Below, piece after piece: positions 5,207-54,790 of a DNA stretch of 64,000 nucleotides. The stretch spans positions 544,001-608,000 of the forward strand of contig CAWIBO010000005.1 in the NCBI GenBank assembly GCA_963834385.1. Direction: 5' to 3'. The stretch is from an uncultured Verrucomicrobiae bacterium (GTDB lineage: Bacteria; Verrucomicrobiota; Verrucomicrobiia; Chthoniobacterales; UBA10450). The notes under the pieces were generated by a model. That model was not told the origin of the DNA. It worked only from the letters and a program-made list of their open reading frames with translations, and made no database searches. Position 1 is the stretch's first letter. Every line of letters begins with the position of its first letter. The translations under genes and the position numbers were made by a program.

Positions 5207-5243
5207 GAATGACGAAGGACGAATGGCTAATGACGAAGGAATG
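5207..5243 (+). repeat. Left arm: degenerate heptamer tandem repeat (GAATGAC)x5
   Basis: GAATGAC GAAGGAC GAATGGC TAATGAC GAAGGAA TG; starts 1 nt after the gyrB stop. Confidence 0.9.
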
Positions 5244-5670
5244 CCGAAACACGAGCGCCGCGATTCGCGGGAGGTCGAGTTTTGGGAGGGCGATTCCGGT
5301 GTCGTCCGGGAAGAGCCGACGCCTCCGGGCAAATACGATCTGGAAGAGCGAACGGCTCGGTTTGGGGAAGCTGTGATCGATTTCGCCCAAACCATTCCGC
5401 AAAGTCCGGTCACCAATCGCCTGATCAATCAGTTGGTCGGCTGTGGCGACGAGTATCGGCGCGAACTACTGCGAAGCCGACGACGCCGTCTCCCGCAAGG
5501 AATTCTTTCTGCGCATCGGGACCTGTAAGAAAGAGGCCCGGGAAACGAAACATTTCCTGCGCATGATCGTCCGCGCTGTGCCTGATTTGAAGCCCATCGC
5601 CCGGGATCTCTGGCGGGAAGCGCGCGAGCTCCACCTGATTTTCGCCAAAATCCACCGCAGCAAAAGCTAG
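5241..5670 (+). CDS. Four-helix-bundle protein (23S rRNA IVS protein / Avd-like family); frameshift near 5445
   Basis: YDLEERTARFGEAVIDF...NRLINQLVGC, then TSIGANYCEADDAVSRKEF...KKEARETKHFLRM...EARELHLIFAKI; the SIGANYxEA and ExxET motifs are typical of the family. Confidence 0.88.
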
Positions 5671-5721
5671 TCATTCATTTCAGCCATTCCTTCGTCATTC
5701 GACATCCGTCATTAGTCATTA
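5670..5721 (-). repeat. Right arm: reverse-complement heptamer repeat (GTCATTC)n
   Basis: 5685-5699 CATTCCTTCGTCATT is the exact reverse complement of 5229-5243; pairing extends to about 37 nt with about 6 mismatches. Confidence 0.9.
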
Positions 5722-5727
5722 CCCACC

Positions 5728-8344
5728 GTGTATAACCCGAACGAAAAAATAGAACCGATCAACGTCGCGGAAGAGATCTCGAGGTCGTTCCTCGATTACT
5801 CGATGTCCGTCATCATCTCGCGCGCCCTGCCCGATGCGCGCGACGGCCTGAAACCGTCCCAGCGCCGCATCCTTTACGCGATGAACGATCTGTCGCTCTA
5901 CCCGAACCGGCAGCACCGGAAATGCGCCAAGATCTGCGGCGACACCAGCGGTAACTATCATCCCCACGGCGAAGCGGTCATCTACCCCACCCTCGTCCAC
6001 ATGGCCCAGCCGTGGGCCATGCGCGAAAGGCTCGTGGACGGCCAGGGCAACTTCGGGTCGGTCGAAGGCGATCCCCCCGCGGCCATGCGTTACACCGAGG
6101 CGCGCATGACGCATCTCGGCGCCGCGCTCATGACCGACATGGACAAGGACACGGTCGATTTCGTCCCGAACTACGACGAGACCCGGACGGAACCGACCGT
6201 TTTCCCGGCCGCTTTCCCGAACCTCCTCGTCAATGGCGGCACCGGCATCGCCGTCGGCATGGCGACCAACATCCCGCCCCACAACCTGGGCGAAGTCATC
6301 GACGGCATCTGCGCGCAGATCGATGACCCGGACATCGACCTCGAAGGCTTGATGAAGTTCGTCAAGGGACCCGATTTTCCCACGGGCTGCGCCCTGCTCG
6401 GCCTCGCCGGCATCCGGCAATATCTCGAGACGGGCCGCGGCAGCATGAAGGTGCGCGGCAAAGCCGGCGTGGAGGAGCTGAAGGGGAACCGGGAGCAGAT
6501 CGTCATCACCGAGATCCCTTACAACGTCAACCGGGCCACCCTGGTCGAGCGCATCGCCGAACTCGTCAATGACAAGGTGCTGACCGACATCAGCGCGATC
6601 CGCGACGAATCGGACGAGAACACGCGCGTGGTCATCGAGTTGAAGCGCGACGGCAATCCCAAGGTCGTCATCAACAATCTTTACAAGCACACCGCGATGG
6701 AAAGTTCCTTCGCGGCCTCGATGCTGGCGATCGACCACGGCCGGCCGAAGCTTCTTTCGCTCAAGGAGGCCAACACCGCCTACATCGAGCATCGGCGCGA
6801 GGTCGTCCTCCGCCGGACCCGCTACGAGCTGCGCAAGGCCGAGGACCGGGCCGAAACCCTCGAGGGTTATCTCATCGCGCTGGCCAACCTCGATGAATTC
6901 ATCCGGATCATCCGCGGCTCCGCCAACCGCGACGAGGCCCGGGTCAAGCTGCTGGCCTTCGAGTTCACCCGGAAACAGGTGGAGAAGATCGGCATCCTCA
7001 TCCGCAACGAGGCGCGCCTGATCGACGGTCGCTACGCCTTCAGCGAACACCAGGCCAACCAGATCCTTGATCTTCGCCTTTACCAGCTGACCGGCCTCGA
7101 GAGCGAGAAGATTGCCGGTGAATACAAGGACCTGATCGAGCTGATCAAGGACCTGCGCGACATCCTGGCGAAGGAGTCGCGCGTTTTCGACATCGTGAAG
7201 AAGGAGCTGCGCGAGCTCCAGGCGAAGCACGCCACCCCGCGCCTGACGCAGCTCATCCCCGACGAGGGCGAGATCAACATGGAGGATTTGATCGCGAACG
7301 AAGGCTGCATCATCACGATCACCCACGGCGGCTTTATCAAGCGCACCGCGGTCAGCGCCTACCGGGCGCAGCGGCGCGGCGGCAAAGGGGTGCGCGGCAT
7401 GGCCACGCGCGAGGGCGCCACGGAGGAGGACGAGGGCGACTTCGTCGAGCATCTCTTCACCGCGACCACGCACGATTATCTCGTTTTCTTCACGGAATCA
7501 GGACGCTGCTACGTGGAAAAGGTCTACGAGATCCCCGAGATGGGCCGCGCGGCCAAGGGGCGTTCCATCGCCAACCTTCTCGAACTGCGTTCCGACGAGA
7601 AGATCGCCGCCACCATCCGCGTTCAGTCGAAGCGCAGCGGCACCGGTCCCAGCGCTGTCGACACGACCTGGGACGAGAACCTGCACATCGTCTTCGCCAC
7701 CCGCACCGGCATCGTCAAGAAATCGAACCTGGGTGATTACGCCAACGTGCGCAAAGGAGGCATCATCGCCATCCAGATCGAGGAGGGCGACTGCCTGATC
7801 GATGCCAAGCTGACCGAGGGGGACAACGAACTGGTCCTGATCACCAAGGACGGCATGAGCCTGCGCTTCCACGAGGAGCAGTTGCGCGATCAGGGGCGCA
7901 ACACCGTCGGCGTCTGGGGCATCCGCCCCGGCAAAGGCGACGTCGTGGTGGCCCTCGCCATCGTTGACCTTGAGCGCCATGCTTTTGGTCGCGGGCGAGA
8001 ACGGGATCGGCAAGCGCACCCCGTTCGACGATTACCGTTCCCAATCGCGCGGCGGCAAGGGAATCATCACCATGAAGACCGGCGAGAAAACCGGCAGTGT
8101 GGTCGGCGCGCTCACGGTTGTTGAGAACGATGAGCTGATGTTGATCACGACCAAGGGGCAGATGGTGCGGACCCGGGTCTCGGAGATTCGGGCCGTGGGC
8201 CGCAACACCATGGGCGTGAAATTGATGGACCTCCGCGGCAGCGAAAAACTTCAGGCCATCGCCCCGGTCGTCAGCCAGGAAGCCGAAGAGGAAGAAGAAG
8301 CTCCGGAAGAACCGGAAACACCGGCCGGCGACCGCAAGAAATAA
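5728..8344 (+). CDS. gyrA: DNA gyrase subunit A (frameshift near 7970)
   Basis: SRALPDARDGLKPSQRR, YHPHG, AAMRYTEAR (catalytic Tyr), GyrA-box QRRGGKG, beta-pinwheel repeats, acidic tail. Confidence 0.97.
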
Positions 8345-8531
8345 GGTAATCCCGGCCGCGTAGAGCGCGGCGGGAGAGGAGTGCGGGCGCTTCCCGGAAG
8401 ACTGCGCCCGGGCCGGTGCGGGCCTTCCCTGCACAGCAAATTCCCGCGCCCGGCTGCCTCCGTGAGGAGCCGGGTCGCGGGAATCGTTGCTGAATAATCC
8501 GAACCCTTGCGGGATTCGGTCGGGTGCCGCC

Positions 8532-8711
8532 CTAGTACTGCCCGCTTGTCCGCGTCGTGGTCGTGCTGGTCGAGGATGGCGTCCGCACCACCGACGATTC
8601 CGTCGTGGTCGTGGTCACCGCGGCCGGCTCTTCCTTGACCACCGTGGTGCAGGAAGGAAGCGAGATCGCGAGGGCAATGATAACAGGGCTGAGAATAAGT
8701 AGTTTTTTCAT
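8532..8711 (-). CDS. Small Thr/Ser-rich putative lipoprotein (59 aa)
   Basis: Absent from the ORF track; my translation is MKKLLILSPVIIALAISLPSCTTVVKEEPAAVTTTTTESSVVRTPSSTSTTTTRTSGQY, with a lipobox-like LPSC. Confidence 0.7.
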   Translation of the reverse strand: MKKLLILSPVIIALAISLPSCTTVVKEEPAAVTTTTTESSVVRTPSSTSTTTTRTSGQY

Positions 8712-8871
8712 ATGTTGTGGCTGTCACCCTCCAATCGACGCAAGTCGCTCCCCCAGATGTATTAAGTCGCGTCTATTTTTCCCAGGGGACCTCTTCCCCG
8801 GGGGGCCCAGAGGGAAAAACGCACCAGCACGGGCGAGGGATCTTCCCGCGGCGGTGTCCCCGATGCGGACC

Positions 8872-14185: not shown

Positions 14186-14189
<4 letters not shown>

Positions 14190-14227
14190 TTGGGAATGTG
14201 ATCAGTGAACCGTGAGCAGTGATCTGT
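14186..14227 (+). repeat. Left arm: heptamer tandem repeat (GTGATCA)n
   Basis: GTGATTG GGAAT GTGATCA GTGAACC GTGAGCA GTGATCT; overlaps the moxR stop. Confidence 0.85.
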
Positions 14228-14668
14228 ATGTCCGCTGTAAAATCGTTTCGAGAACTCAATGTGTATCGTACTGCCCGTGAGGCGGCGGGGCTGATTTTTT
14301 CTCTTTCAAAGCAGTTTCCCGCTGAAGAGCGCTTCTCCCTGACCAACCAAATTCGGAGAAGTTCACGAGCCATCAAGGCCATGCTCGCCGAAGCATGGGC
14401 CCGGCGGAGATACAAGGCCGCTTTCATCAACAAGATCGACGAAGCGTTGGGCGAAACCTATGAAACGCAGTCATGGCTGGACGACGCTCTCGATAGTTCT
14501 TACATCACCCGCGCCGATTTCGACATTCTCGATCAGCACTACGACGCAATCGGCGGAATGCTTTCGCGGATGATCGATCGTGCAGAAGATTTCTGCAAAA
14601 ATCTGCCGGCGACCGATTACCGCTCCGTCGTCCGCGAGGAGGAGGTCAGTCCGATCACCGACCCCTGA
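14228..14668 (+). CDS. Four-helix-bundle protein (IVS/Avd-like family)
   Basis: SFRELNVY...FPAEERFSLTNQIRRSSRAIKAMLAEAW.RRRY..AF..K...A.GE..ETQSWL. Confidence 0.92.
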   Translation: MSAVKSFRELNVYRTAREAAGLIFSLSKQFPAEERFSLTNQIRRSSRAIKAMLAEAWARRRYKAAFINKIDEALGETYETQSWLDDALDSSYITRADFDILDQHYDAIGGMLSRMIDRAEDFCKNLPATDYRSVVREEEVSPITDP

Positions 14669-14681
14669 TCACCGTTCACAT
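14651..14681 (-). repeat. Right arm: reverse-complement heptamer repeat
   Basis: Reverse complement reads ATGTGAACG GTGATCA GGGGTCG GTGATCG; overlaps the four-helix stop and the DUF58 start codon. Confidence 0.8.
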
Positions 14682-39919: not shown

Positions 39920-39999
39920 CCGGCCCCATCAACCACTGTGATCACCCGCGAGACAAGCGCGAAGTTCGGCCGTTCCCCTCCCTCCTACTGCTCCGAATA

Positions 40000-40531
40000 G
40001 ACAGGATTAACAGGATGAACAGGATTCGAACAAGTCTTGTGCGTTCTCCGCCCTTCCACTGTCAGCTTTTCAGTTGTCAGCGTTTCAGCATTTTCCGTCA
40101 CGTGATCAGTGATCCGCGACCAGTGATCAGCTTCTCCCCGCCATCCTCCATCCTCGATTCTCCATCCTCCATCCTCGTTCCCCCTCCCCCGGTAGGGCGA
40201 GACTCCGTCGAGCCTGGGAGCAGGCCCGGAAGTTCACCACAGAGATCGCAGAGGGCACAGAGGAAAGTGAGGGGTGTGTGAAGACAGGATGAACAGGATT
40301 AGAGGAGGCTCCGGCGGCCGAGGGCCGCTTCCCTCTGTCAGCGTTTCAGCTTCCTCTTCACGCTCCGTGCCTCCGCGCCCCAATCCTCCATCTCCTATCT
40401 CCAGGATGAACAGGATTAGAGGAAGGCTCCCGCGGCCGAGGGCCGCCCTTGTCAGCGTTTCAGCTTTCCCCCCCCGTGATCCGTGATCGGTAATCAGTGA
40501 TCAGCCTCAATACCGTCAGACCATTCACGAT

Positions 40532-40550
<19 letters not shown>
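40000..40550. repeat. Mosaic of at least 6 short tandem-repeat families plus a GTAG REP
   Basis: ACAGGATTA-type 9-mers (40000, 40283, 40402); TCAGCTTT 8-mers (40061, ~40336, ~40451); GTGATCA (40102, 40476); CCATCCT (40141); REP (40191); CACAGAG-containing 9-mers (40235); ACCATTC (40520). Confidence 0.9.
40191..40214 (+). repeat. GTAG-type REP-like palindrome, copy 1 of 3
   Basis: GGTAGGGCGAGACTCCGTCGAGCC, identical at 45993 and 47262. Confidence 0.85.
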
Positions 40551-41656
<1,106 letters not shown>

Positions 41657-41718: not shown

Positions 41719-43497
41719 TTGTCGAGCCGATCGCACTTATCTCTGCCCGCTGGCGAGGCCCCCCGCAAGTTGCTTCCGGGCGCCCTGGCCCTGGTCGCCC
41801 TCGCTTTCCTCTGGTTTATCCTCATCCGTCACCTCAGCAATGAATGGTCGGTGAACGAGCAATACGGCTACGGCTGGTTTGTCCCGTTCTTCGCCGCCTT
41901 CCTTTTCTGGCTGCGCTGGGAAGATCGCCGCCGCCCCTTCCCCTCCTGCTCTTGCTCCTGATCCTGCTCCTGCTCCTGATCCTGCTTCTCCTCGCGATCG
42001 TGCTCCTGCTCGTGCTCGTGCTCGTAATCCTGCTTCTGCTCCACCATTCACGATTCACCATTCACGATTCACGCTCCTGCTCCCCGCGGCCGCGGCCGCG
42101 CTGCTCCTGCCGGTCCGCGTTTTCGAGATCGGCAACCCCGATTGGCGCCCGCTCGGCTGGGTTCACGCCGCCATCGTCGTCGGGCTCACGCTCGCTTTCA
42201 TCCACTCGATCGGCGGCCGGTCCTGGCTTCGGCACTTCGCTTTCCCCGTTCTTTTCTTCCTCATCGCGGTGCCGTGGATCACGCCGGTGGAAGCGCCCGT
42301 GGTCCAGGGTCTCATGCGCATCGTCGCAATTGTCTCCACCGAAGTCGTCACGCTGCTCGGCATCCCCGCCCAGCTCGAGGGCAGCCTCATCCGCATCCAA
42401 AATGGCCTCGTCGGCGTCAACGAAGCCTGCAGCGGCGTGCGCTCTCTCCAGACCTCGCTCATGATCGGCCTTCTCTTTGGCGAACTGAAACGGTTCACCG
42501 TCGGTCGTCGGCTCGGACTGATCGTGGGAGCCGTCGTCATCGCCATGATCTTCAATTTCCTGCGCGCGATTATCCTGGTCTGGCTGTCCGCCACAAGAGG
42601 GGCGGAGGTGGCCAATTCCTGGCATGACGCACTCGGCTACGCCATCGTCGGCGGCGTTTTCCTTGGCACCATGGCCCTCGCCGCCGCCTTCGGACGCTCC
42701 AAAACCCCAATCGAAAATCGAGAATCGAAAATCGAAAATCCGTCACCATTCACGGCCCTGACCGCGACGCCGGCCGTCGCCGCCCTCCTCTGGCTCGTGG
42801 CCGTCGAGTTCGGCGCCGCCGCCTGGTATCGCGCCAGCGAAACCGATCTGGTCGCGCGCGAAAGCTGGACCGTGCAACAACCGACCGACGCTCCCGGTTT
42901 TCGCCCGATCGAGATCGACGATCAGGTTCGCCAAACCCTCCGTTACGACTCACGGCTGGCAGGTCGCCTGGACCGGTCCGATCCCCACCGATAACGGACA
43001 ACCGATCACCGATCACCACCGGAAACTCGCTCCGAGTTTCCAGCTCTTCTATCTTCCGCTGGGAACCCGGCACTTCCACCATCCTGCGGGCGCGGGCGCA
43101 TCGCCCGGATGTTTGTCTGCCGAACGTCGGCTGGCGCGAAGCGGCCGACCACGGCATCCGCTTTTACCAGGTGGGCGGCGGCCTCTCTCTTCCGTTCCGG
43201 CATTTCACCTTTGTCCGCGATCTGCCAGGGCGACGCGCACTCCAGGCCGAGGCTTTCTTTTGCATTTACGAAGACCGGGTCCGCCCCTCTTTGCAAACCA
43301 GCGCGGCCGACCTGACCGCCGGCGATGTGGGCGGGTGGATGCCGGCCGAACGGTTCCGCGTGGTCCGCGAAGGCCTGCGCAACCCCGGCCAGCAGGTAAT
43401 GGAATTGGTCATGCTCACGCCTGATGCCCTTTCGCCCGCCGACGCCCAGACACGCTTCGCCGAGATGCTCCCAAGCCTTGTCCAGACCAGCCGCTGA
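41719..43497 (+). CDS. Exosortase/archaeosortase family protein with C-terminal EpsI-like domain; several frameshifts and repeat-derived loops
   Basis: W..NEQY.YGWFVP, multiple TMs, NEACSGVRSL (Cys), N.LR (Arg), WHD (His); C-terminal HRPDVCLP..GW. Confidence 0.88.
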
Positions 43498-43527
43498 CCA
43501 TTTTCCGCCCGCCTCCGCCGAACAGAG

Positions 43528-43772
43528 GACAGGATTAACAAGATTAACAGGATGGGATTGCTGGCTCTTCCGTCTCCCTAAGAATCCTGTCCATCCTGTA
43601 AATCCTGTCCAAATTCGACCTCCGGGAACCGCAAGCGCCGCCGCGTGCCCGTATCGACGCGCCGCGAAAAACGCCCTGCCAGGGAACTCAGAAAGACAGG
43701 ATTAACAAGTTTAACAGGATTTGCTGGCTCATCCGTCTCCCAAAGAATCCTGTCCATCCTGTAAATCCTGTC
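43528..43772. repeat. Two ~80-bp hairpin elements with inverted 9-mer repeat arms
   Basis: GACAGGATTAACAAG(A/T)TTAACAGGAT-[TGCTGGCTC..CCGTCTCCC]-AATCCTGTCCATCCTGTAAATCCTGTC at 43528-43609 and 43695-43772. Confidence 0.92.
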
Positions 43773-43847
43773 TAAAAAACTCATCACCCCGCTCGCTGCT
43801 TTGGCTTACCATCACAGAACCACCACCGCCTGATGCCCAGCGATTTC

Positions 43848-45900
43848 ATGATGACGCCGGAAGAGCTCCGGCTGCGCACCCGCAAACGCCGCCGCCTTTT
43901 CCTGATCCTCGGAATCGGCCTCGCGCTCGGGCTCATCATCTTTTTCGCTGCCCGCCCGACCGGTCGCGCCATCAAATCCTGGCAGGCCCGACGTCACGCC
44001 GAGAAAGCCTTTGCCTATCTCGACCAGGAGAAATGGGAGGAGGCGAAAAACTCGGCCGTGTCCGCCTATCAGCTTTCACGCAACGAGCCGCAGGCGATCC
44101 GCGCCATTGCACGGCTGCTTTCCCGGACCCGACAGGCGGAGGCACTCGAATTCTGGAAGCAGTTTCGCGCCGACAACAAGATGTCCGCCGACGATCTCCG
44201 CGACGAGGCAAGCATTGCGCTTCTGGCCGGGATCACGCCGCGGGCCGAAACCGCTATGATCGAGCTGCTGGCCCTGCCCCAGCCGGAACCACGCGACCAT
44301 CTGCTGGCCGCCCAGCTTGCGGCCCAGAAAGGATCGGCCGCCGAAGCCACCGCCGCGATCGACCAAGTCCTCGCCCATCCCAAAACCGACGAACGCGAAC
44401 GTCTCCAGGCCGCCATCCTCCTTCTCGGCGGTCGCGCCCAACGAAGAAACCCGCCAGCGAGCCTGGTCAGAGATCGAGAAGATCGGCCAGGGCCAGACCG
44501 CCCCCGCCCTCGACGCCCTCGTCCTCCTCGCGCAGCGCGCCATCTCCTCGCCGACTCCCCCCAATAACCAACAACCAATAACCAATAACCGCGCCGCCCC
44601 CGGCGCCACCCCCAATAACCAACAACCGATAACCGATAACCGCGCCGCAGGCGCCACCCCCAATAACCAACAACCAGTAACCAATAACCGCGCCGCCCCC
44701 GGCGCCACCGCCCTCGCCCAGGCCCTCACCGCTCATCCCCTCGCCGGCGCCTCGCAAAAACTCATCGCGCGCGACCTGATCATTCGCGACGCGCCCGACC
44801 AGCGGGAGACGATGATCACCGAAGCGATCGCCGAATGGAAACAGGGCAGCCCCGCTGACCTGGCGGCGCTCGCCATGTGGCTCAACGGCAAACAGGAGCA
44901 CGACCGGCTCCTGGAGATCGTTCCGCTCGAGACGGCGCTCCGGTCGCGCGAGCTTTATCTTCAATACCTGGACGCGCTCGGGCGCACTCGGACGCTGGGG
45001 CGAGATCAAGACCCTTCTCGAGGCCGAACGTTTCCCGCTCGATCCCGTGGTGCAGTTCATGTATCTGGCCCGGGCCACGACGCAGCTCGGTGAAAAGACC
45101 GCCGCGGAGAATAGCTGGCTGCGCGCGCTCGACGCCGCTCACGGCAATCCCGGCAAACTCATGAGCGTGGCCGCTTACGCCGAAAAGAACGGGATGATCG
45201 CGGTGGCCGACCAGGCCTATGCGACCACAATCGCCGAGGCCCCGAAACTCCGCGCGGCCCATCAGGCGCGGCTCCGCCTGGCCCAGGGCGAGCGTGACAC
45301 GCGCAAGATGAACGAGACCCTGCGCGTCATGCTCGAGCATTGGCCAAACGATCCCGCCGTGCAGAACGACGAAGCGTATACGCGGTTGCTCCTGTTGGGA
45401 GCGAACCGCGAGGAGTCAGAAGCCGGAAGTCGGGAGTCGGCAGAGTCCGCAGCCGAAGCGGCTTCTCCAACAACCAATAACCAACAACCAATAACCAATA
45501 ACAGCGCCGTCCGGCGCCACCCCCCAAACTTCAATCTCCCATCTTCCATCTCCCGGCGAGGTCTCCTCGCCGTCGCCACCTCAACAACCAATAACGGATA
45601 ACGGAGAACTCGACCAAATCGCAGCCCTCGCTGAGCGCTTGGTCGCCTCCAACCCCACCAGCCTCCCGCATCGCACCCTCCTTGCGCTGGCCCGGCTGAA
45701 GCAAGGCCGCCCCGCCGACGCCCTTAAGGTTTACGAGAACATTCAGGTGCCGCCCGGGGCCCTGACCGCCTCCGCCCTGGCCGTCCACGCCGCCGTCCTG
45801 GCCGCAAACGGCAATCTCGACGAAGCCAGGACCGAAGCCGGCACCGCCGCCCGGTCCGCCCTGCTTGCCGGAAGAGCGCGCACTTCTGACTAACATTTAG
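43848..45900 (+). CDS. Membrane-anchored TPR-like protein of the exosortase locus; several frameshifts and repeat insertions
   Basis: Basic N-terminus + TM, Ala/Leu-rich helical repeats, WPNDPAVQND.AY; corrected end LLPEERALLTNI-stop at 45900. Confidence 0.75.
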
Positions 45901-45992
45901 CCCGGCTCGCAAAGGCATTTGTTCAAGGAAGCCGGGCGAATCTCCTCTTTGTCGACCCAGTCAATATTTGTGGACATTTTGGGCTCTCCCCC

Positions 45993-46329
45993 GGTAGGGC
46001 GAGACTCCGTCGAGCCTGGGATCGATAAGGGTGCAGACAGACAGGATTTACAGGATGAACAGGATTAGGTGAAGGCTCCCGCGGCCGAGGGCCGCTCCCC
46101 TTTCAGCTTTTCAGTTGTCAGCATTTCAGTTTTTGCCTTTAGGCTCCGCGCCCCACGCCCCATGCTCCGTGCCCGACCCTGTCAGCTTGTCAGCGTTTCA
46201 GCTTTTCAGCTTTTTTCTTCAAGCTCCCAGCCCCTGCTCCGCGCCCCTAGCTTCCAACTTCCATCTCCAATCTTCCGCGGCCGGCAGCCGCTCCCTTTCA
46301 GCTTTTCAGTTGTCAGCGTTTCAGCTTTT
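45993..46329. repeat. GTAG REP copy 2 plus repeat mosaic
   Basis: REP 45993-46016; ACAGGAT 9-mers at 46040; GGCTCCCGCGGCCGAGGGCCGC; three TCAGC 8-mer runs; CCATCTC-type 7-mers. Confidence 0.85.
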
Positions 46330-46345
46330 CTCTTAACTCCCAACA

Positions 46346-46678
46346 ATGTCCCGCGGCCAACACCTCATCGTTCTGCTCCTTTCCGCCGCCTGTCTCATCC
46401 TCGCGGTCGCTGCGCTCGCCACCGCCCGGTCTAATCAGGATCTGCAAACCGAGCTGCAAGCCCAGCAAACCGAGATCAACAAAGGCGTGCTCAGCCAGCA
46501 GATCGGGACCAATCTCATCCGCGACATTGCCGGGTCCGCCATTCAAAACGAGAACCTGCGCGCCCTGCTCGCGCGTCACGGCTTCACCATCCAGGAAACA
46601 CCGGGACCGGCCGCCGCGCCCGCAAACGCCGCCACCCCTTCGTCGACGCCTGGCACTCCGCCGCCGCGCCGCCGCTGA
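46346..46678 (+). CDS. Small TM + coiled-coil protein A1
   Basis: Clear paralog at 53735 (shared ELQAQQ.EINKG..SQ..G.NL.R...N.NL..LL.RHG); Pro-rich tail. Confidence 0.85.
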   Translation: MSRGQHLIVLLLSAACLILAVAALATARSNQDLQTELQAQQTEINKGVLSQQIGTNLIRDIAGSAIQNENLRALLARHGFTIQETPGPAAAPANAATPSSTPGTPPPRRR

Positions 46679-47070
46679 TGATGCGCCCGCCCCAACACCT
46701 TCCCCCGCAGCCACACCGTGACCTCGCCCATGGACGATCCGCCGTTGTTCAATCCGCCCCGGTCCGAACCGCGTTTTGGCCGCTCTTTTTCATCTCCCTC
46801 ACCCTGATCACCGTGCTCGGCTGGGAACTGGCCATGGCCGGCCAGGCCCGGCGCACCGCCCAGCAACTGCGCACCCAGCAAAACAGCGTGGTCGAACAGT
46901 CACAGCAGGTTCAACTCGCCCTCGAAAAGCTGGCGCGCGACCTGGTCGAGCTCGGCAAAACCGACCCCGCCGCCCAAGCCTTGGTGACGAAGTACAATAT
47001 CAGCGTAACCGGCGTCCCCTCGTCGCCCGGCCACGGCGCCCTCCGCGACCCCTCAGTAGCGGCCGTGTAG
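46678..47070 (+). CDS. Small TM + coiled-coil protein B1
   Basis: Paralog at 54093 (shared AFWP, ALE.LARDLVELGKTDP.AQALVT). Confidence 0.85.
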   Translation: MMRPPQHLPPQPHRDLAHGRSAVVQSAPVRTAFWPLFFISLTLITVLGWELAMAGQARRTAQQLRTQQNSVVEQSQQVQLALEKLARDLVELGKTDPAAQALVTKYNISVTGVPSSPGHGALRDPSVAAV

Positions 47071-47097
47071 CGTCGGCCGTCCGCGTGTCCCCTCGGG

Positions 47098-47290
47098 AGA
47101 TCAGTGATCGGTGATCGGCGATCCGTAGTCGGAGATTAGCCCCTCCTGCTCCTGCTCTTGATTCCTGCCCTCTAAGGAGATCAGTGATCGGCGATCAGTT
47201 CCTCCCTTGGCTGCCGACCATTCACGGTTCACCATTCAACCATTCACGCACCCTTCCCCCCGGTAGGGCGAGACTCCGTCGAGCCTGGGA
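47098..47290. repeat. Repeat mosaic plus GTAG REP copy 3
   Basis: GTGATCG 7-mers (47098, 47177), CTCCTG 6-mers (47143), ACCATTC (47217), REP 47262-47285. Confidence 0.85.
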
Positions 47291-47430
47291 GCAAGCGTGG
47301 CTGCTCAGAGACAGAATCTTCAAAACTAACCCCCTTCTGCGCTGAAAGGTGACGTAATAGATTGCGAATATACCACTTACACGACTTCTTACGCGCGCAT
47401 AACTTTTCTCGGAAAATTGTGGAAATTCCT

Positions 47431-47553: not shown

Positions 47554-50500
47554 ATGGATTCTGATCTCTCCTCGCGTCCACTAGACGAGCGCCAGCTCTC
47601 CACCAAAGGATTCACCATCCTTTGCATCGTCTTCCTCCTCCTCGCCGCCGCCGCGGCTTCGTATGGGCAGACATGGACCGGCGGAGGTTCCAGCGATGAT
47701 TGGGGCGATGGTGGTAACTGGTCCGGCGGTGCCCCCAGCTCATCAGGGAGCGCGATCCTAAACTTTGCAGGGACCGCGAGGCTGCAACCTTGGAACAACT
47801 ACGCGAACTACACCCAGTTTCAGTCGATCTTTTTCAATGCAGGTGCAGGGGCATTCACGCTGCGCGGGAATGCAATCAAGCTTTTCGGGAATATCCAAAA
47901 CGACAGTTCGAGCTTGCAAACAATCAACTTCGGATCGTCGGGCGAAGGTAAATGGGGCTTTGTTGGTGGAAATAATGCGGACAGACAATCGTTTCACCCT
48001 GAACAGCGGTAACATAACTGTTAGCCAGTCCATTTTCCTCGATAACGGGGCTGGCATCAATGTCTATGGCTCGAATCGTAACACGTTGACTCTGGATGCA
48101 GTGGTCTTTGACGGCATTGGCGCGAGCGGAGATTTCACAATCAATACCGATCAGCTTGTTATCTTCAATGCTGCGAATACGTATTCGGGACAAACACGCA
48201 TCAAAGCGGGTGAGTTGCGCCTTGGTAACAGCGGTGGGATCAAGAGCGGCACCACCTTCTTTCTGGGTAATTCATCCGGGTCAGCAAATGCTACGCTTAG
48301 CCTAAACGGCTCCAGCCAGACGATTTCGAACGCGGTGAATGTCGAGTCGGGGAATACCGGCACGATGACCGTTCAGTCTTTGAATAATTCGGGGACGAAC
48401 ACTCTTAGTGGGACGCTCACCTTGAATAAGGCGACAACAATTTCTGCGGTCTCCGGTGGCACGTTAGCAGTGAACACGATCACTGGTGTTAACACGAGCA
48501 ACACGCTGACCATTGGCGGAGCGGGAACGGTCAAGTTGGGTGGGACCGTCGACAACACCAATCTCAGCATCAATGCCGCGAGTGGAACATTGATTCTGGA
48601 AAAAACGAGCAGCGGACCCGGCGGGCTCGTCGCAGGCGTTCGTTCGCTGGGCGGCACTCTGACGCTTTCCGGGGGAACCGTCCAGATCGGCGGCACCGGA
48701 CAGGGCGGGAGCACGACCAACGTCGACCAAATCTATAACGGGGCGGACGTAGTGGTGAACAGTGGCACCCTTGATCTGAATGGACGCAACGAGACGATCA
48801 ACGGCTTCAGCGGGACGGGCGGGTATGTGACCAACAATGCCACCGGAACCAGCACCCTTACGGTCGGGTTTGATGGCGCTACTGGCACCTTCGCTGGCAC
48901 AATCCAGGACGGCGGCAGCGGCAAAGTCCTTGCCCTGACAAAGACCGGCAGCGGCACGGTTACTCTCTCGAACACGACCAACACTTACACCGGCGGCACC
49001 GTAGTTTCCGGCGGCCTCGTGGCTATCCGAGAAGGTACAAGCTGGGGGCGTCGCCAGGATCGTTTCAGGCAGCAAACGTCACGTTGAATGGCGGCGGATT
49101 GACCGTCGATTGGACTGCGACGTATGCCGTTGCGTTGCAGACGAACCGGGGTGTTACAATCGGCTCAGGCGGCGGGTCCGTAGGTGCCGGCACCGCCCAC
49201 AGTTCGTCACTAACAATCAACGGTGCCATCGTGAATAACGCCGGCGCCGGCCAGTCTTTCTTCCTCGGGGGCACCAACGCTATCACCATCGGCGGCGCCA
49301 TTTCTGGTTCCGGTCTTGTCCAGGTAAATGGCAGCAACGTCGCCTTCAGCGGAACGAACACTAATTCTGGTGGAACGCAGATCGATAGCGGGGCGCTGCT
49401 AAAGATGAATGGCGGGCAGCTTCAGTCGACAACGGTCGGCTCGCTGGCTGCGAATGGCACGTTTGATCTGAATGGCACGTCTCAGACTGTCGCCGGCCTG
49501 ACGGGAGCAAGTAGCGGCAGTATCCGAAATAACAATGGCACCGCAGGTTCGCTGACGATAAGCGTCGCCACTGGGAACAATACGTTCAACGGCACAATCG
49601 GTAACACAGGCCAAAATGATCTAAGCCTCACGAAAGGGGGGAGCGGCACCCTCTCTCTCACCGGAGTCAATACGTTCACTGGTGGGATCGTAGTGAACGG
49701 CGGGACCCTTTCCGTAAACTCGAATAGCGCGCTTGGCGATACAGCAGGCGTCGTTACTCTGAACGACGGGGCCACGTTCAACAACACTGCGATTGTGAGC
49801 ACCGCCAACGGTATGCGCCTCTTTACAATCACGAATGCTGCCAATGCTACCATCACTTTCAACACCGGAGCGGACTGGAGTTTTGCCTCTAGCGGGACGC
49901 GTGGGATCAGTGGCGGCTCTTCTACCACAACTCTGATCAAAACGGGCGCTGGTACGCTCACCATCAACAACAACTCCCAGTCCCTGACCGGCAACTGGCG
50001 GATCGATCAGGGGACACTTTCGAATTCCTTCGCGAACGCTAATTCATTGGGCACGGGCAACGTGACGCTAAACGGCGGCACGTTTCTAATGAGTTCCTCA
50101 CTGTCGAGAACTGCCGATCGGATTTTCACCTTCAACAATGTCGCGGGCAACGTCATGGACGTGGCCACGAGCGGCATATTCGTCTTTGACGTGGCGAATC
50201 GACTTACAGGCGCAGGTGGGTTCTCGAAGACTGGCAATGGCACACTCCAGATCGCTGCCGGGCAAAATTATGCCGGCACTACCCAAATCACTGGTGGCGT
50301 GATCTCGATAACAGGCGCGGGCAGCATCGCCAACGGAGCGTCCGGTTCCCGTGTGAATATATCGTCTGGTGCGCAACTCGACATCAGTGGCAGCACGTCG
50401 GGAGCGAGTGTCTCAATTATTTCGGAAACCGGCGGGACCAACGGGGGTGCAGTGAAGCTTGGGGCGCGAACCCTCACGATGAACGGAGGAGCGGCGAGCA

Positions 50501-53500
50501 CGACTTACCAGTTCGACAACCTCGGCATTGCTGGCGACACGGGCGGGTTCACTTTGAATGGTGCGAACGCCAGCACGACGCTGCGACTTTACGGGGCCTC
50601 TGCGTATACGGGCGCGACAAGCATTCAGCAGGGCACCTTGGTCCTGGCAGGCACAGGAGCGTCCTCCGGTTATACTCTCTCGGGCGGCGGCCTGACGACC
50701 GAAGGAGCGAATCGTCTTACCAGCGCCAGCAACATTACTGTGTCGAATAGCGGCAGTACCTTTACAGTTGGCGGGGCTACGGAAACGGTCGGGGCACTCG
50801 CGGGCAGCGCAGGCACGATTGCGATTGGTGCAAACACTCTGACCACCTCTAGCGCCAGCTCGACGACATATAGCGGTGTCTTCACCGGTATCGCGGCTGG
50901 CCGGCTTGAGAAAGGCGGAACTGGCACGCTGACCCTCGGCGGAAGCGGAAGCGCGTTCCTCGGGCAGCTTAAGTTGGCAGAGGGCACAGTCGTTGTGAAC
51001 AGCGCTTCAGCTTTGGGCAATAACACCTCGACTTCGACGCGCGCGATCGACCTAGGCCTTAACGCTGCGAACACCTCTCAAGCAAACAACGTTTCGCTGC
51101 TCGCGAGCAACGGCGTCACGTTCAGCCAGTCCATCTACGTTGCGCCGAACACGTCCAACGCCACGCGCACCATCGGCTTGAATGGCGGCGCCGGCTCTGC
51201 CACATTTAGCAACGAAATTTTTCTTGCTGGCAACGCGACGCTCGATGCCACCGGCGGCGCGACGACCGTCAGTGGCAGGTTGACTGGCGCTGGCGGCATT
51301 ATTGCCAATGCCGGAAACATCTCCTTGAATGCGGCAAACAATTATACGGGATCTACCGCAGTCAATGCCGGAACTCTCACCATCAAAAACAATAGTGCTT
51401 TGGGAACGACGGCAGGTGGCACCAGCGTCGCTGGCGGCGCGACTCTGAAGCTTGATGGCACGGGCAGCTCGCTTTCAGTGGGCGCGGAGGCTCTCACCCT
51501 TAACGGGAGCGGCGTCGCCAACGGTGGCGCCCTGGCAAACGTCGGCACGAACTCCTACGCTGGCGCCATCACTTTGGGCAGCAACGCGTCGATCCACGCC
51601 GGCGGAGGAACGCTGAATCTCACGGGCGGAATTACGAAAGATGCCAAAATTCTTACCCTTACCGGTGGCGGTACGATCACCCTCAGCACCTTCGGAATTT
51701 CCGGCGCGTCAGCCGGTTCCGACCTGATCGTGGATGGCGTTACTTTCAATGCCAACGTCGCCAACGACTACAACGGTCCGACGTCGATCATCAACGGCGG
51801 TGTCTTCAACGCGAACGTCGCCGATGCCCTCCCCCCCGCGAACGGCCGCTCGGCTGTCAGCATGGATGCGACCGGCTCCGGCAGTTCGCAGCTAAACCTG
51901 GGTGCAAATCAATCCATTGCCTCGCTGCTCGGACTCAGTTCTTCGCTGATCAATTTGAACGCGTTTACTCTCACGTTCGGCACCGGGGCAGGTACCTTCC
52001 GATTTCGCCGGTGTCATTTCTGGCAGTGGTAAACTCGTGAAGGATGGTGCCAGCACCCAGTCGCTCTCCGGAAACAACAACTTCAGCGGGGGCACTGATC
52101 TTGCCGGAGGAACGCTGGCCATTAACAGCGCCTCTTCGCTCGGAGCCGTGGGCGGTGCTCTCGCTTTCACCGGGACCAGCACTCTCCGGACGGATGCAAG
52201 CTTCAGCTCCGCTCGTAATTATTCGATCAATTCCGGCGTCACAGGGACCATTGACACCAACAACAACACCTTCACGCAAACCGGCGTCATTTCGGGCGAT
52301 GGCAACCTGAGCAAGTCTGGTGCGGGATCGCTGATCGTGACCGGCACCAACACCTACCTTGGTGCAACCACCATCAACAGCGGGATCCTTCAGGTCGGAA
52401 ATAACGGCACAACGGGAACGCTCGGTGCCGGGCAGGTGAACATTGGCGATGCCGCCACGTTGCGTTTTGACCGCTCCGATCCGTTTTCGGTCAGCAACAG
52501 CATCAATCTCGCGGGCGTTGGCGGTCAGCAGGGCTTTGTTAATGTCTTCAGGAGCGGGCAGCAGGTAACGCTTACCGGGGCGATCACCAGCGCCGGCGCC
52601 GGTCTGACCAAATCGGGACTGGGCAAGCTCGTGGTCGATAATGCCTCGAACAGCTTTACGTCAGATGTCCGTATTCAGAGCGGGATCCTGGAGACCGCAA
52701 CTCTCTCATTCGGCGGTTCCAACAGTTCCCTCGGGAAAGGCAGCATCTTTATTGGCGACGACGGAAGTGCCGGCACATTGCGTTACACCGGCACAACGGC
52801 CAACACAGACCGGCTGCAATTCAACGCCCTTCAGGCGACCGGCACAAACAACATCATCGACGTGGTTTTCTTCCGGGACCACCCTCACGGTCACCTCAAA
52901 TATGACCGAAGACGCTGCGGGCAATGGCCTAGCTAAGGAGGGCGCGGGCGCGCTTAGTCTGACTGGAGCCAACAACTATAGCGGCGCTACTTCGGTTAAC
53001 GCTGGCTCGCTGTTCGCGAATAATTCGTCGGGTTCGGCTACGGGCACCGGAAACGTGACCGTGAACAATTCCGGCACAACCCTGGGCGGCACTGGCGTGA
53101 TCACGGGCACCGTGAACGTTGGGGCAGGCGCCAACCTCGTCGTCGGTAGCACGGCAGCCGCAGGAACAACCGAAACCCTTCACATCGGTTCCCTCACCCT
53201 GGCTTCCACTTCTAACTTTACCGTCGACCTGATGGGCACGGCGGTTGGCTCAAGTTACGACCAACTCCTCGTCATGGGTGCGGTCAATCTTGGAGGAGCA
53301 AACCTGATCGTGAACGCAGGGGCTGGACTTAACCTTCTGGATAAGTTCTTTATCGTTTCGAATGACGGTGTCGACGCCATCAACGGAATTTTTAGCCAGA
53401 ATGCGACGGTTAGCTCCGGGAACTACCTTTTTGCCATTAATTATCTCGATAATTTCGGTGGGGTCGGTCCCGGAAACGATATCTCGTTAACCGTGACCGC

Positions 53501-53597
53501 CGTCCCCGAGCCCGGCACGTGGATCGGCGGCTCGCTCGCGTTCCTCGCGATCGGCTACACCCAGCGCCGCCGGTTCCTGAAGCGCCGCGCTTCTTAG
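47554..53597 (+). CDS. Large (~2000 aa) PEP-CTERM surface protein with autotransporter-associated beta-strand repeats; frameshifts near 47950, 49050, 51997, 52868
   Basis: Signal peptide; many LTK.G.GTL.L...NTY.G.T.V..G.L repeats; C-terminal VPEPGTWIGGSLAFLAIGYTQRRRFLKRRAS. Confidence 0.9.
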
Positions 53598-53603
53598 CCG
53601 TAG

Positions 53604-53654
53604 GGAGCACGGCTTTGTAAGCCGTCCATTAGCCGGGTTACGAACCCGGCCTCC
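53604..53654. repeat. GGAG REP-like doublet (second family)
   Basis: GGAGC-ACGGCTT-TGT-AAGCCGT and CCGGGTT-ACG-AACCCGG-CCTCC; related copy at 54472. Confidence 0.7.
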
Positions 53655-53697
53655 TAACCGAATAAGTGAACGCGCGCACCTGCGCGCTACTTTCTCC

Positions 53698-53729
53698 TTT
53701 CGACTTTCGACTTTCGACCTTCTACTTTC
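53698..53729 (+). repeat. Heptamer arm (TTTCGAC)n
   Basis: TTTCGAC TTTCGAC TTTCGAC CTTCTAC TTT, directly before the A2 start. Confidence 0.85.
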
Positions 53730-53734
53730 TCCAA

Positions 53735-54085
53735 ATGTCCCGTTCCCAGTTCACCATTCTCCTGATCATCGCCCTCGCCTGCCTCGGGCTGGCCGCCGCG
53801 GGGATTGTCGTCGCGCACGGGAACCAGGCGCTCCAGGCCGAGCTCCAGGCGCAACAGGCTGAGATCAACAAGGGCACGACCAGCCAGAGGGTGGGTTTGA
53901 ACCTGGTGCGCGCCATGGCGGTGTCAGCACGGAAGAATGACAACCTCAAGAGCCTGCTCGACCGACACGGCTACAAGCTGAGAGAGGACGAGCCTGCGGA
54001 GACGTCGGCGGACGAACCGGAGCCGGCCGCGTCCCCCTCGCCCACTCCAACTCCTTCCCCGACGACAACGCCGCGCCGCCGCTAG
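53735..54085 (+). CDS. Small TM + coiled-coil protein A2
   Basis: Paralog of 46346; ends in a SPSPTPTP tail and PRRR. Confidence 0.85.
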   Translation: MSRSQFTILLIIALACLGLAAAGIVVAHGNQALQAELQAQQAEINKGTTSQRVGLNLVRAMAVSARKNDNLKSLLDRHGYKLREDEPAETSADEPEPAASPSPTPTPSPTTTPRRR

Positions 54086-54092
54086 AAACATC

Positions 54093-54470
54093 ATGGAAGA
54101 TCGCGACACACCCCACCACGACCCGGCCCCGGCGCCCGCGGCGGTCCGCCGGCCGCTGAACGCCTTTTGGCCGGTCTTGATCCTGTCGCTCAGCATCCTG
54201 GCCATGTTCGGCTGGATCGTTTGGACCGGGGTGCAATCGCGACAAAAAGCTCTCGAGGTGCGCGAGCAGCAGGAGAAATCAGTCGAACGCGCCAGGGAGA
54301 TGCAGCGCGCGCTCGAACGTTTGGCGCGCGACCTGGTGGAGCTTGGAAAGACCGATCCCGACGCGCAGGCGCTCGTGACCCAGTTCCGTATCAATGTGGT
54401 GGCGCCGTCCGGAGCCGCTCAAGCCCCGTTTTCGAGTGCCACCGACACCCCGGCTGGAGCGGGCCCTTAA
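54093..54470 (+). CDS. Small TM + coiled-coil protein B2
   Basis: Paralog of 46678. Confidence 0.85.
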   Translation: MEDRDTPHHDPAPAPAAVRRPLNAFWPVLILSLSILAMFGWIVWTGVQSRQKALEVREQQEKSVERAREMQRALERLARDLVELGKTDPDAQALVTQFRINVVAPSGAAQAPFSSATDTPAGAGP

Positions 54471-54471
54471 T

Positions 54472-54790
54472 GGAGAACGGATTTGTAATCCGTTGAGCCA
54501 GGTTACAAACACCGGCCACCGAAGACTCAGCAGCGAGAGTATCCCAATACAGGTGATCAGTGATCAGCCGCTCCGCTCCCCCAACTCCCATCTTCAAGCT
54601 TCCGCGGCCGAGCCGCCACGCTCCCGTCCCGCTCCATGCTCTAGCCACCGCATCTTCTAGCCTCCCCGCTGTCTCGCCGCTGCTTCATTCCGCAGTCCGA
54701 GATGGGCAATCTTCTCCACCGAACGGATAACCGAAACCCGCGCGTCAGCGCGCTCCCGCCCGCTTTCAGCTTTTCAGCTTGTCACCTGCC
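54472..54790. repeat. GGAG REP-like doublet plus degenerate repeat mosaic
   Basis: GGAG-AACGGATT-TGT-AATCCGTT at 54472; GTGATCA at 54553; CCATCTT-like at ~54580; TCAGCTT at ~54765. Confidence 0.7.

Follow-up and report, generated by a model that had tools for sequence, protein, structure and literature searches.

The window, the whole stretch of 64,000 nucleotides that was analyzed, belongs to the 89.6%-complete Chthoniobacterales genome of a soil bacterium; all coordinates refer to its plus strand. At the junction of gyrB and gyrA, a GAATGAC array (×4.4, TRF, 5207..5237) directly follows the gyrB stop codon, and an arm of the complementary GTCATTC type (5670..5722, recognized from the sequence and the duplex) ends just before the gyrA start. 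These arms form a predicted duplex of −46.5 kcal/mol (z −5.2) around a four-helix-bundle (4HB) gene (5223..5670) that lies in two frames, with the change near 5450 and a TIGR02436 match of 31.7 bits in the second half. The orthologue at the same junction of genome G003 has an open frame. Between MoxR and DUF58, an intact 4HB gene (14228..14668; PF05635, 92.4 bits; TIGR02436, 83.1 bits) is flanked by a GTGATCA-family arm after the MoxR stop codon (14189..14224, by eye; pattern match at 14198) and a GATCAC-type arm (14645..14680, by eye and duplex) that overlaps the end of the reading frame and abuts the DUF58 start. These two arms pair weakly here (−29.9 kcal/mol, z −1.5), and clear arms are seen in the same-site orthologues of other Chthoniobacterales. 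Both inverted pairs that an earlier note had described around 4HB genes are therefore real, with the qualification that the gene at gyrB|gyrA is not read in one frame.

Further arrays lie in and between an exosortase and a TPR gene. Within the exosortase gene, the first loop contains CTCCTG (×16.7, 41943–42042) and ACCATTC/CACGATT arrays (together 41943..42073, TRF), across which the frame changes. An AATCGAA array in the exosortase–EpsI linker (42709..42755, TRF) is read in frame, and a CACCGAT array (×4.6, reversed GTGATCA-like, 42986..43017, TRF) in the EpsI-type domain contains a stop codon, after which the frame changes. Of the three inserts in this gene, only the one at 42709–42755 is thus translated through, which narrows the translated inserts of the earlier note. 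A candidate cassette around the exosortase core gains no support (duplex z −1.1). Two empty hairpins with ACAGGATTA arms separate the exosortase and TPR genes, one at 43518..43616 (−36.9 kcal/mol, z −4.37, matched by 0 of 200 shuffles) and one at 43692..43778 (−31.4 kcal/mol, z −7.15). The TPR gene itself contains three tandem units, each with a CCAATAA arm in frame (44558..44709, TRF consensus period 51 or 48 nt), and carries AGTCGGA, CCAATAA, CTTCCAT, and ATAACGG arrays in its second variable linker (45414..45610, TRF), a position at which relatives have other in-frame arrays. Exosortase and TPR orthologues from four or five other genera likewise hold in-frame arms with different units in the same linkers, whereas the frames of the window's two genes are broken there. 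These frame changes may be assembly indels, because the TPR frame also changes outside the repeats and an independent metagenome contig has one letter fewer at 44982.

Arms also occur alone and in mosaics. The mosaic before tRNA-Pro (39990..40560; TRF, pattern matches) opens with ACAGGATTA, TCAGCTTT, GTGATCA, CCATCCT, a 31-nt REP-like element (40188–40218), and CACAGAG. It continues with two composite copies of ACAGGATGA, a GC hairpin, and TCAGC, whose folding is no better than that of shuffles, and then GTGATCA and ACCATTC. A second mosaic (45988..46335, TRF) comprises the 31-nt element, ACAGGATTA, a GC hairpin, and three TCAGCTTT arrays, the last of which stops at 46330, ∼15 nt upstream of ORF 46346. 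The third (47097..47290; TRF, pattern matches) consists of two GTGATCA arms, CTCCTG, and ACCATTC, followed by the 31-nt element, which is present in 76 copies, often between an ACCATTC arm and a ACAGGATTA or GCAGAGAC arm. A solo ACTTTCG array (×5.9, 53689..53729, TRF) ends 6 nt upstream of ORF 53735, and weak solo arms of GTGATCA (×2.1, 54553) and TTTCAGCT (×2.6, 54764) lie at 54553..54784 (TRF). By their translations, ORF 53735 is a paralogue of ORF 46346.

The repeat arms of the earlier note are confirmed, as TRF finds every named family at or next to its assigned position. Besides the GAATGAC (5207–5237), CTCCTG, and ACTTTCG (53689) arrays, these are GTGATCA (40102–40130, 40476–40504, 47099–47123), its reversed relative CACCGAT (42986–43017), ACAGGATTA (40001, 43529, 46041), TCAGCTTT (40062, 46101, 46182, 46296, 54764), CCATCCT (40141), ACCATTC (40520, 47217), AATCGAA (42709), CCAATAA (44561, 44660, 45467), and AGTCGGA (45414). 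The GTGATCA solo arms are present at 40102, 40476, 47098, and 47177, and the one at 54553–54567 is weak (2.1 copies). A GTGATCA ×3 pattern with at most three mismatches gives seven matches at five places in the window (14198, 40102/40109, 40476/40483, 47097, and 47177), compared with none in 100 shuffles.

Such arrays abound in the whole genome, with 236 period-7 and 59 period-8 arrays of at least three copies against 24 and 12, respectively, in a third-order Markov simulation. Predicted genes cover ∼85% of the genome, and 335 of the 375 period-7/8 arrays lie outside them. Just over half of all arrays (277/532, against 2/105 in the simulation) use a unit found in the flanks of a resident cassette gene. 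We consider it rather likely that these sequences form a genome-wide family of hairpin elements, whose arms are inverted arrays of a 6–9-nt unit and of which the window holds many members. Twelve copies carry a gene in the loop, nine of them a 4HB gene (23S-IVS/Avd family) and three a GxxExxY gene (nuclease fold). Several hundred are gene-less, as empty hairpins, solo arms, or mosaics with the separate REP-like element, and some sit inside variable linkers of protein genes.

By eye, inverted short-repeat arms are present at all 12 4HB and GxxExxY loci of the genome. The association that the earlier note had drawn between arrays and these genes also emerges by strict TRF, which places an array at one end or both of 8/12 loci compared with 153/2611 predicted genes, and at both ends of 4/12 compared with 10/2611. 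Flank complementarity exceeds that of shuffled sequence at 46 of the 66 4HB loci compared (59 from relatives and seven from this genome) and at 25 of 40 GxxExxY loci in relatives, whereas 1 of 150 random genes shows it. For these 46 4HB loci, the stem has a median length of 30 nt and 88% identity; its left arm stops 20 nt upstream of the start codon, and in 25 of them the right arm and the stop codon overlap. Arms and gene are inherited together, and the two arms remain complementary while their repeat unit changes: same-site orthologues with differing units retain left–right complementarity, for example in groups D and E. The genes for rsmE, trmD, and an aldo-keto reductase, identified from their ORF translations, are also bracketed by inverted arms of one family; arms around such ordinary genes may merely be neighboring hairpins.

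The orthologous junctions vary in content. Across 15 genomes, this one included, gyrB|gyrA holds a 4HB gene with GAATGAC arms in two, gene-less GAATGAC hairpins (88 and 130 nt) in two, a GxxExxY gene (125.6 bits) with ACAGGATT arms in one, and tight spacers of 17–35 nt in two, the others numbering eight. MoxR|DUF58 contains, depending on the genome, a 4HB gene with one of two different arm units, a GIY-YIG cassette, a lone remnant repeat, or a bare spacer of 21–35 nt, and exosortase|TPR is empty in this genome and 4HB-filled in G003. Tight spacers, empty hairpins of the same family, and 4HB-, GxxExxY-, or GIY-YIG-filled hairpins are all found at orthologous junctions of other genera, which therefore supports insertion and loss at the DNA level; as all compared relatives belong to other genera, this support applies to differences between genera. 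The elements are DNA insertions located at junctions within operons, and they vary from one genus to the next; the interpretation in the earlier note is partly supported. Its transposase-free cassettes that leave arm scars fit the comparisons, and the cassettes contain no transposase; however, help in trans may be involved, since the genome encodes homologues of REP-associated tyrosine transposases (RAYTs).

Their predicted stem of ∼30 bp, which extends from ∼20 nt ahead of the start codon as far as the stop codon, gives the elements the same anatomy as an ORF-bearing intervening sequence (IVS) of rRNA. Since this anatomy is shared, the stem in an operon transcript would most likely be an RNase III site that releases a small mRNA. 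Movement most likely proceeds via a DNA hairpin, probably helped in trans by a RAYT-type enzyme or the cargo nuclease, and switching of template from one arm to the other, rather than selection, could maintain the complementarity. Several observations weigh against this explanation. Arm similarity is higher within a cassette than between orthologues in only 15 of 35 same-site pairs; 31 of 53 close 4HB pairs (at least 60% identity) occupy the same site, indicating old vertical inheritance; the arms of the intact window cassette (14189/14645) pair weakly; and no target-site duplication is evident at the orthologous junctions compared. The different hairpin at the RAYT gene examined, the inverted arms around ordinary genes, and the lack of a sense-strand G·U excess in the stems count on the same side.

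Alternatively, each 4HB or GxxExxY paralogue might bind its own unit, as RNA or DNA, with solo and empty arms as sites read in trans, which we regard as unlikely. Protein pairs of at least 60% identity have a common unit in 32/53 cases (12/982 below that identity), and such pairs at different sites in 9/22 (12/960 for unrelated different-site pairs). The cargo types also differ in vocabulary, the left arms of 4HB genes having G.37, A.29, T.24, and C.09 and those of GxxExxY genes A.41, C.23, G.23, and T.13. Half of the genome's arrays are built from units of resident cassettes, and the solo arrays ending before start codons (53729, 46330) recall TAACTGA repeats as presented in the available part of PMC4679880. 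However, co-inheritance of arms and gene accounts, without binding, for the association of unit and clade, or at least for most of it, as 31/53 pairs share a site. Numerous GTTGAGA-type arrays occur in genomes in which a search did not find the corresponding 4HB clade (matches: G021, 124; G017, 29; G012, 27; G035, 25), although this test is not clean, with three mismatches allowed and variant units also caught. Stem mismatches exhibit no sense-strand G·U excess (92 versus 81, p = 0.45), so that selection on an RNA stem finds no support here. The RNA code of the earlier note, in which each paralogue recognizes its own repeat, gains no support from these results.

REP systems generally have one REP per RAYT, and BIMEs are mosaic arrangements. 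As in REPs and REPINs, the elements here are high-copy, intergenic, hairpin-forming, non-autonomous doublets that join other short elements in mosaics. Arms could accordingly be spread or maintained by the genome's RAYTs, with the small genes as loop passengers. Against the NF047646 cut-off of 80, two RAYT-like ORFs reach 85.3 and 77.1 bits, the 31-nt element between arms gives a mosaic syntax resembling BIMEs, and the empty hairpins are doublets of inverted arrays. Yet the arms are tandem arrays of 6–9-nt units from more than 10 unrelated families, the RAYT gene examined is flanked by GGAC...GTCC hairpins instead of tandem-repeat arms, and cargo genes in the loop are, to our knowledge, not a REPIN feature. 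The gene-plus-arms layout also occurs in distant phyla, and we find a REP-like origin quite unlikely.

It seems improbable that slippage-prone simple repeats arose locally, in disordered linkers and in spacers that are richer in AT, with the gene link as a terminator or attenuator by-product. The different units at the same place in the exosortase and TPR linkers of four or five other genera could be local turnover, and heptamer copy number varies among Coxiella strains (PMC4990558, available part). Against this, complementary flanks are nearly absent at random genes (1/150), identical units turn up at many unlinked sites, and gene-less hairpins of the same family lie precisely where relatives hold a gene. 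An artefact of the long-read metagenome bin is extremely improbable: several genes of the region change frame, also outside repeats, and an indel separates the window from the independent contig at 44982, but the repeats are no artefact because dozens of independent assemblies show the same architecture and positions 44569–44719 are matched, with three differing letters, by a 151-nt contig from another run, which leaves the frame changes alone to this explanation.

Cyanobacterial STRR heptamers are short tandem heptamer repeats comparable to TAACTGA. The latter forms direct repeats of unknown function in Beggiatoaceae, Cyanobacteria, and Bacteroidetes, and the available part of the source (PMC4679880) describes them, like the arrays here, as tandem heptamers that are nearly all intergenic, often end just before a start codon, and occasionally occur in frame within ORFs. 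They comprise one dominant unit with 169 direct-repeat sets and a single indirect repeat, whereas the arms here are inverted and use many units; that part of the text links them to neither 4HB nor GxxExxY genes, and the terms intervening, four helix, and S23 occur nowhere in the text. The 4HB proteins are also homologous to Avd of diversity-generating retroelements (PMC10053308, available part), with a 4HB protein of the window matching NF033474 (E 2e-5) and bAvd (E 2.8e-4). Unlike these retroelements, the elements here have no template/variable repeat pair, and no reverse transcriptase was found in the 89.6%-complete genome.

The closest known system is the ORF-bearing 23S rRNA IVS. According to the available part of PMC4990558, the Coxiella burnetii IVS in helix 45 has a 28-bp terminal stem, carries tandem GACAGAT heptamers upstream of its S23p ORF, is cleaved by RNase III, and is regarded there as a selfish element that arrived by horizontal transfer and was then retained vertically. 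Both systems place a PF05635/S23p 4HB ORF in the loop of a terminal-inverted-repeat stem, with tandem heptamers of variable copy number just upstream of the ORF. In contrast to the IVS in its rRNA helix, the elements here reside in operon spacers between protein genes, their arm units vary from copy to copy, their arms are also found without a gene, as parts of mosaics, and within coding linkers, the design is shared by a second cargo, GxxExxY, and RNase III cutting is predicted. We infer their movement and function, and the comparisons support hairpin units that come and go between ordinary genes, like rRNA intervening sequences.

The window carries two small genes of the four-helix-bundle (4HB) family (PF05635/TIGR02436), each enclosed by inverted arms made of tandem arrays of a 6–9-nt unit. 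Cassette 1 (5207–5722) lies between gyrB and gyrA and consists of GAATGAC arms around a 4HB gene in two frames, the second half of which matches TIGR02436 with 31.7 bits; a frame change is seen at 5450. The arms of this cassette (5203–5250 with 5662–5724) form a duplex of −46.5 kcal/mol (z −5.2). Cassette 2 (14189–14680) is located between the genes for MoxR and DUF58 and holds an intact 4HB gene (14228–14665; 92.4 bits for PF05635 and 83.1 bits for TIGR02436) within GTGATCA arms. The pairing of these arms is weak (z −1.5); same-site orthologs of cassette 2 in many Chthoniobacterales bins possess clear GTGAATG/GTGATCG arms. Metagenome bins of the Chthoniobacterales (Verrucomicrobiota) also provided the close relatives of one window protein.

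The association of arms with these genes extends to the whole source genome (2.91 Mb in five contigs, 63% G+C; the window is positions 544001–608000 of contig C5), which harbors nine 4HB loci (TIGR02436/PF05635), two of them split over two frames, and three loci of a second cargo family, GxxExxY (TIGR04256), one of them broken and none within the window. When the flanks were read by eye, inverted short-repeat arms stood hard against the ORF at all 12 loci, with an arm unit that differs from locus to locus. A strict TRF array was present at one end at least of 8 of the 12 loci, compared with 153 of 2611 predicted genes, and at both ends of four, compared with 10 of 2611. We also aligned each upstream flank locally to the reverse complement of the downstream flank and flagged loci that outscored the best among 20 shuffles by a margin above 6. 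The test was positive at 46 of 66 4HB loci (59 from the genomes of 23 relatives and seven from the source genome, one further locus with too little flank being left out) and at 25 of 40 GxxExxY loci of the relatives, but at only 1 of 150 random genes of the source genome. In the 46 flagged 4HB loci, the paired stretch has a median length of 30 nt and an identity of 88%; 20 nt separate the end of the left arm from the start codon, and in 25 cases the right arm extends over the stop codon.

Orthologous junctions were compared in relatives that all belong to other genera, with 15 genomes for each of the two cassette sites. At the gyrB–gyrA junction, the source genome (G000, counted among the 15) shares a 4HB gene with GAATGAC arms with one relative (G003), whereas in two others (G008 and G012) the GAATGAC hairpins, 88 and 130 nt long, contain no gene, and two (G010 and G006) have bare spacers of 17–35 nt. 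In G005, the junction is filled by a GxxExxY gene (125.6 bits) with ACAGGATT arms. Spacers of 113–152 nt without scored arrays are found in G001, G011, and G027, and a sulfotransferase-like ORF occupies the site in G013, G004, and G015 (the family was checked in G013 only). In G029, gyrB does not lie within 1.2 kb. The remaining genome (G028, locus L040) carries a phd antitoxin and PIN toxin pair, so that small selfish modules in general seem to land at the gyrB–gyrA junction.

At the MoxR–DUF58 junction, 4HB genes with differing arm units are present in G000 (GTGATCA) and G012 (AGAGGTG). Four further genomes (G006, G009, G013, and G003; loci L042, L044, L051, and L049) possess a GIY-YIG gene of ∼100 amino acids, assigned by Pfam in G006 and by similar N termini in the other three. 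This gene is flanked by non-tandem inverted repeats of the GTCATCCCGAGCGAAGTCGAGGGATC type and adds a third type of cassette with a small gene to this site. A lone remnant of the GTCATCCCGAGCGAAGTCGAGGGATC-type repeat remains in G001, five genomes have bare spacers of 21–35 nt, and three show other arrangements. The junction between the exosortase and TPR genes holds two empty ACAGGATTA hairpins in the window (fold z −4.4 and −7.2), a 4HB gene with GAAGTAA arms in G003, 82 nt with arrays in G006, another ORF in G005 and G015, and no spacer in G012 and G029.

Together, these three junctions show filled, empty, and bare states, a series of the kind that the earlier note had asked for, and the series argues for gain and loss at the DNA level. 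With regard to MITEs, which combine terminal inverted repeats with a target-site duplication and a related autonomous IS, comparison by eye of occupied with bare junctions revealed no evident duplication, and none of the cassettes contains a transposase. Of the proposed transposase-free insertion and loss of cassettes leaving arm scars, the gain and loss of hairpin units is supported; how these units move and what the stem does are inferred.

Pairwise comparison of the 46 flagged 4HB cassettes shows that gene and arms are largely inherited together. The dominant arm unit is common to 32 of 53 protein pairs with at least 60% identity versus 12 of 982 pairs below this value. Among the 53 close pairs, 31 are located at the same site (23 sharing the unit) and 22 at different sites (nine sharing the unit), compared with a common unit in 12 of 960 unrelated different-site pairs. 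Because the close pairs are mostly same-site pairs, most cassettes are old and vertically kept, and in some cases gene and arms have relocated together. In two groups of same-site orthologs (D and E), the units are quite different, with left and right arms that still match each other. Within-cassette arm similarity exceeded the similarity between orthologs in 15 of 35 same-site pairs, a comparison that is biased toward the orthologs because conserved coding ends are included.

All repeat families named in the earlier note were recovered by TRF at or adjoining the positions assigned to them. Three copies of GTGATCA (up to three mismatches) match at 14198, 40102/40109, 40476/40483, 47097, and 47177, with no match in 100 shuffles. 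A genome-wide tandem-repeat scan, as suggested in the earlier note, yielded 236 period-7 arrays of at least three copies versus 24 in a third-order Markov simulation, and 59 versus 12 for period 8. Outside predicted genes, which cover ∼85% of the genome, lie 335 of 375 period-7/8 arrays, counts that are approximate because our crude, purpose-built gene caller overlooks genes where the window is lower in G+C. The arrays are clustered, and the 40–47-kb stretch of the window is among the dense patches. In the first genome-wide scan, partners within 1.5 kb were direct in 192 and inverted in 80 of 666 cases at score 14 (25 for the reversed-query control), so that most arrays are not simple hairpins. 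Genome-wide, 76 inverted pairs were listed. Composite units of ACAGGATGA, a GC hairpin, and TCAGC were considered as arm hairpins and rejected (z +0.2 and +0.3, one at −2.1); they are solo arms flanking a small GC stem.

Inverted arms also surround other sequences. On contig C2 of the source genome (2725–3273), CACGATT/ACCATTC arms enclose, as judged by eye, a tRNA-like sequence together with a small ORF whose N terminus is hydrophobic. ORFs that resemble ordinary genes by their translations, rsmE (C2, 421700–422833) and trmD (contig C5, 805897–807264), are likewise bracketed by inverted arms of one family; such genes were left out of the cassette count. Within the window, two small-gene pairs (46346–47070 and 53735–54470) appear paralogous by eye. 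In both, one gene encodes a small protein that, as read by eye, has a hydrophobic stretch at its N terminus, a second ORF accompanies it, and neither Pfam nor NCBIfam gave a match. A solo array lies ahead of each pair and ends ∼6 or 15 nt 5′ of the start codon. The stretch from 48000 to 62000 has a G+C content of 0.56–0.60 (compared with ∼0.63), was scored poorly by the gene caller, contains very long ORFs (55383–60272, 1629 amino acids; 60094–63108, 1004 amino acids), and may be acquired DNA.

Arrays are also found within genes. The exosortase–EpsI fusion, a single ORF of 553–642 amino acids in seven relatives, is spread over three frames in the window, where it has three inserts (41943–42073, 42709–42755, and 42986–43017) and changes frame across two of them, the first and the third. 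Arrays occupy the loop that follows the first membrane helix in G000 and four of the seven relatives, and the interdomain linker in G000 and five of the seven. The units of the relatives always differ from those of G000 and are always in frame; two relatives from other families have no arrays in the exosortase. The TPR gene follows the same pattern, with arrays in one of its variable linkers, both in G000 and in three of six relatives, and a second in-frame block that only G000 has. Frame changes of the TPR gene also lie outside the repeats (44420 and 44960–44982), and one letter at 44982 is absent from an independent contig, pointing to some indel errors in the assembly. The frame changes in both genes may reflect pseudogenes or assembly indels. 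A cassette formed by the exosortase catalytic core between CGATTC and GAATCG arrays was rejected (duplex z −1.1).

Among described systems, the cassettes come closest to the ORF-bearing intervening sequence (IVS) of 23S rRNA. According to the Coxiella study (PMC4990558), the IVS of this organism has a 28-bp terminal stem and three tandem GACAGAT heptamers 5′ of the S23p ORF, strain-variable in copy number, and is cleaved by RNase III at the first repeat. For the window, no RNA run covering 39900–47300 was found, and the one DNA run searched yielded only fragments of relatives. The window cassettes share this anatomy, a PF05635/TIGR02436 ORF inside a stem of terminal inverted repeats, but lie between protein genes (gyrB/gyrA and MoxR/DUF58) instead of in a 23S rRNA helix; the only RNAs that Rfam finds in the window are two tRNAs. 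The three GxxExxY loci resemble them in that the gene is bracketed by inverted short-repeat arms. The passages of PMC4679880 on TAACTGA direct repeats place them just 5′ of start codons and describe no link to 4HB or GxxExxY genes. In full-text literature outside subscription journals, we found no report that connects 4HB or GxxExxY genes beyond rRNA with inverted arms of short repeats, and heptamers appeared only inside the Coxiella IVS or as unexplained direct repeats.

REP/REPIN-RAYT systems are similar in their inverted doublets that fold as hairpins and in their high copy number. Two ORFs of the genome match the model of the REP-associated tyrosine transposase (85.3 and 77.1 bits; cutoff 80). 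The RAYT-like gene that we read is flanked by GGAC…GTCC hairpins and not by heptamer or tandem-repeat arms. A 31-nt element, CCCGGTAGGGCGAGACTCCGTCGAGCCTGGG, has 76 copies in the genome with up to four mismatches, three of them in the window (40188–40218, 45990–46020, and 47258–47288), often between an ACCATTC arm and a ACAGGATTA or GCAGAGAC arm; we take this mosaic syntax to resemble that of REP mosaics. Often, the next feature after the element is a GGAGGGACCTGCTTCCGCAGGTCC-type hairpin, which also flanks a RAYT-like gene. This is probably a REP/RAYT system in its own right, intermingled with the heptamer arms.

The earlier note had alternatively proposed an RNA code in which each paralog reads its own repeat. 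A stem selected as sense RNA should show more G·U-type than A·C-type mismatches, and no such excess was found (92 versus 81, p = 0.45; 73 of 85 cassettes). The arms are strongly strand-asymmetric relative to the gene. Left arms of 4HB cassettes (G.37, A.29, T.24, C.09) differ in composition from those of GxxExxY cassettes (A.41, C.23, G.23, T.13), and the two kinds of cargo therefore use different vocabularies. The unit of a resident cassette gene is used by 277 of 532 arrays in the genome versus 2 of 105 in the simulation. GTTGAGA-type arrays number 25, 20, 21, 3, 4, 54, 55, and 10 in eight genomes with the matching 4HB clade (including one unpublished genome, G007), and 124, 29, 27, and 25 in G021, G017, G012, and G035, where this clade was not found. 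These counts speak against strict dependence on the clade, albeit not cleanly, because the three mismatches allowed also caught variant units. The built-in control is void in this comparison, the reversed pattern being a rotation of the same repeat. Unpublished genomes contribute to tallies only, and all loci read individually come from published ones. With no G·U excess and with GTTGAGA arrays not confined to clade-holding genomes, a paralog-specific RNA code is not supported. A link to diversity-generating retroelements, to whose Avd protein PF05635 is tied in PMC10053308, was rejected, since no reverse transcriptase (PF00078) was found in the 89.6%-complete genome and no template/variable repeat pair is present.

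To our knowledge, neither the 4HB (PF05635/TIGR02436) nor the GxxExxY family has a known function. With confidence short of even, we propose that rRNA IVSs, the excess of heptamer repeats in bacterial genomes, and these two large orphan families would be joined in a single cross-phylum class of gene-carrying hairpins. The arms of this class would be cargo-specific (C-poor for 4HB; A-rich and T-poor for GxxExxY), binding or cutting of the arms would fall to the cargo protein that they enclose, and the class would seed genomes with empty hairpins, mosaics, and even new in-frame linker peptides in proteins such as the exosortase. Arrays read in frame at conserved positions within linkers point to a possible route from mobile repeats to protein linkers. 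If the proposal is true, it would provide a biological context for the 4HB and GxxExxY families, explain a large share of intergenic heptamer repeats, with half of the arrays of this genome using cassette units, and place rRNA IVSs within a wider family of elements for which rRNA is one landing site.
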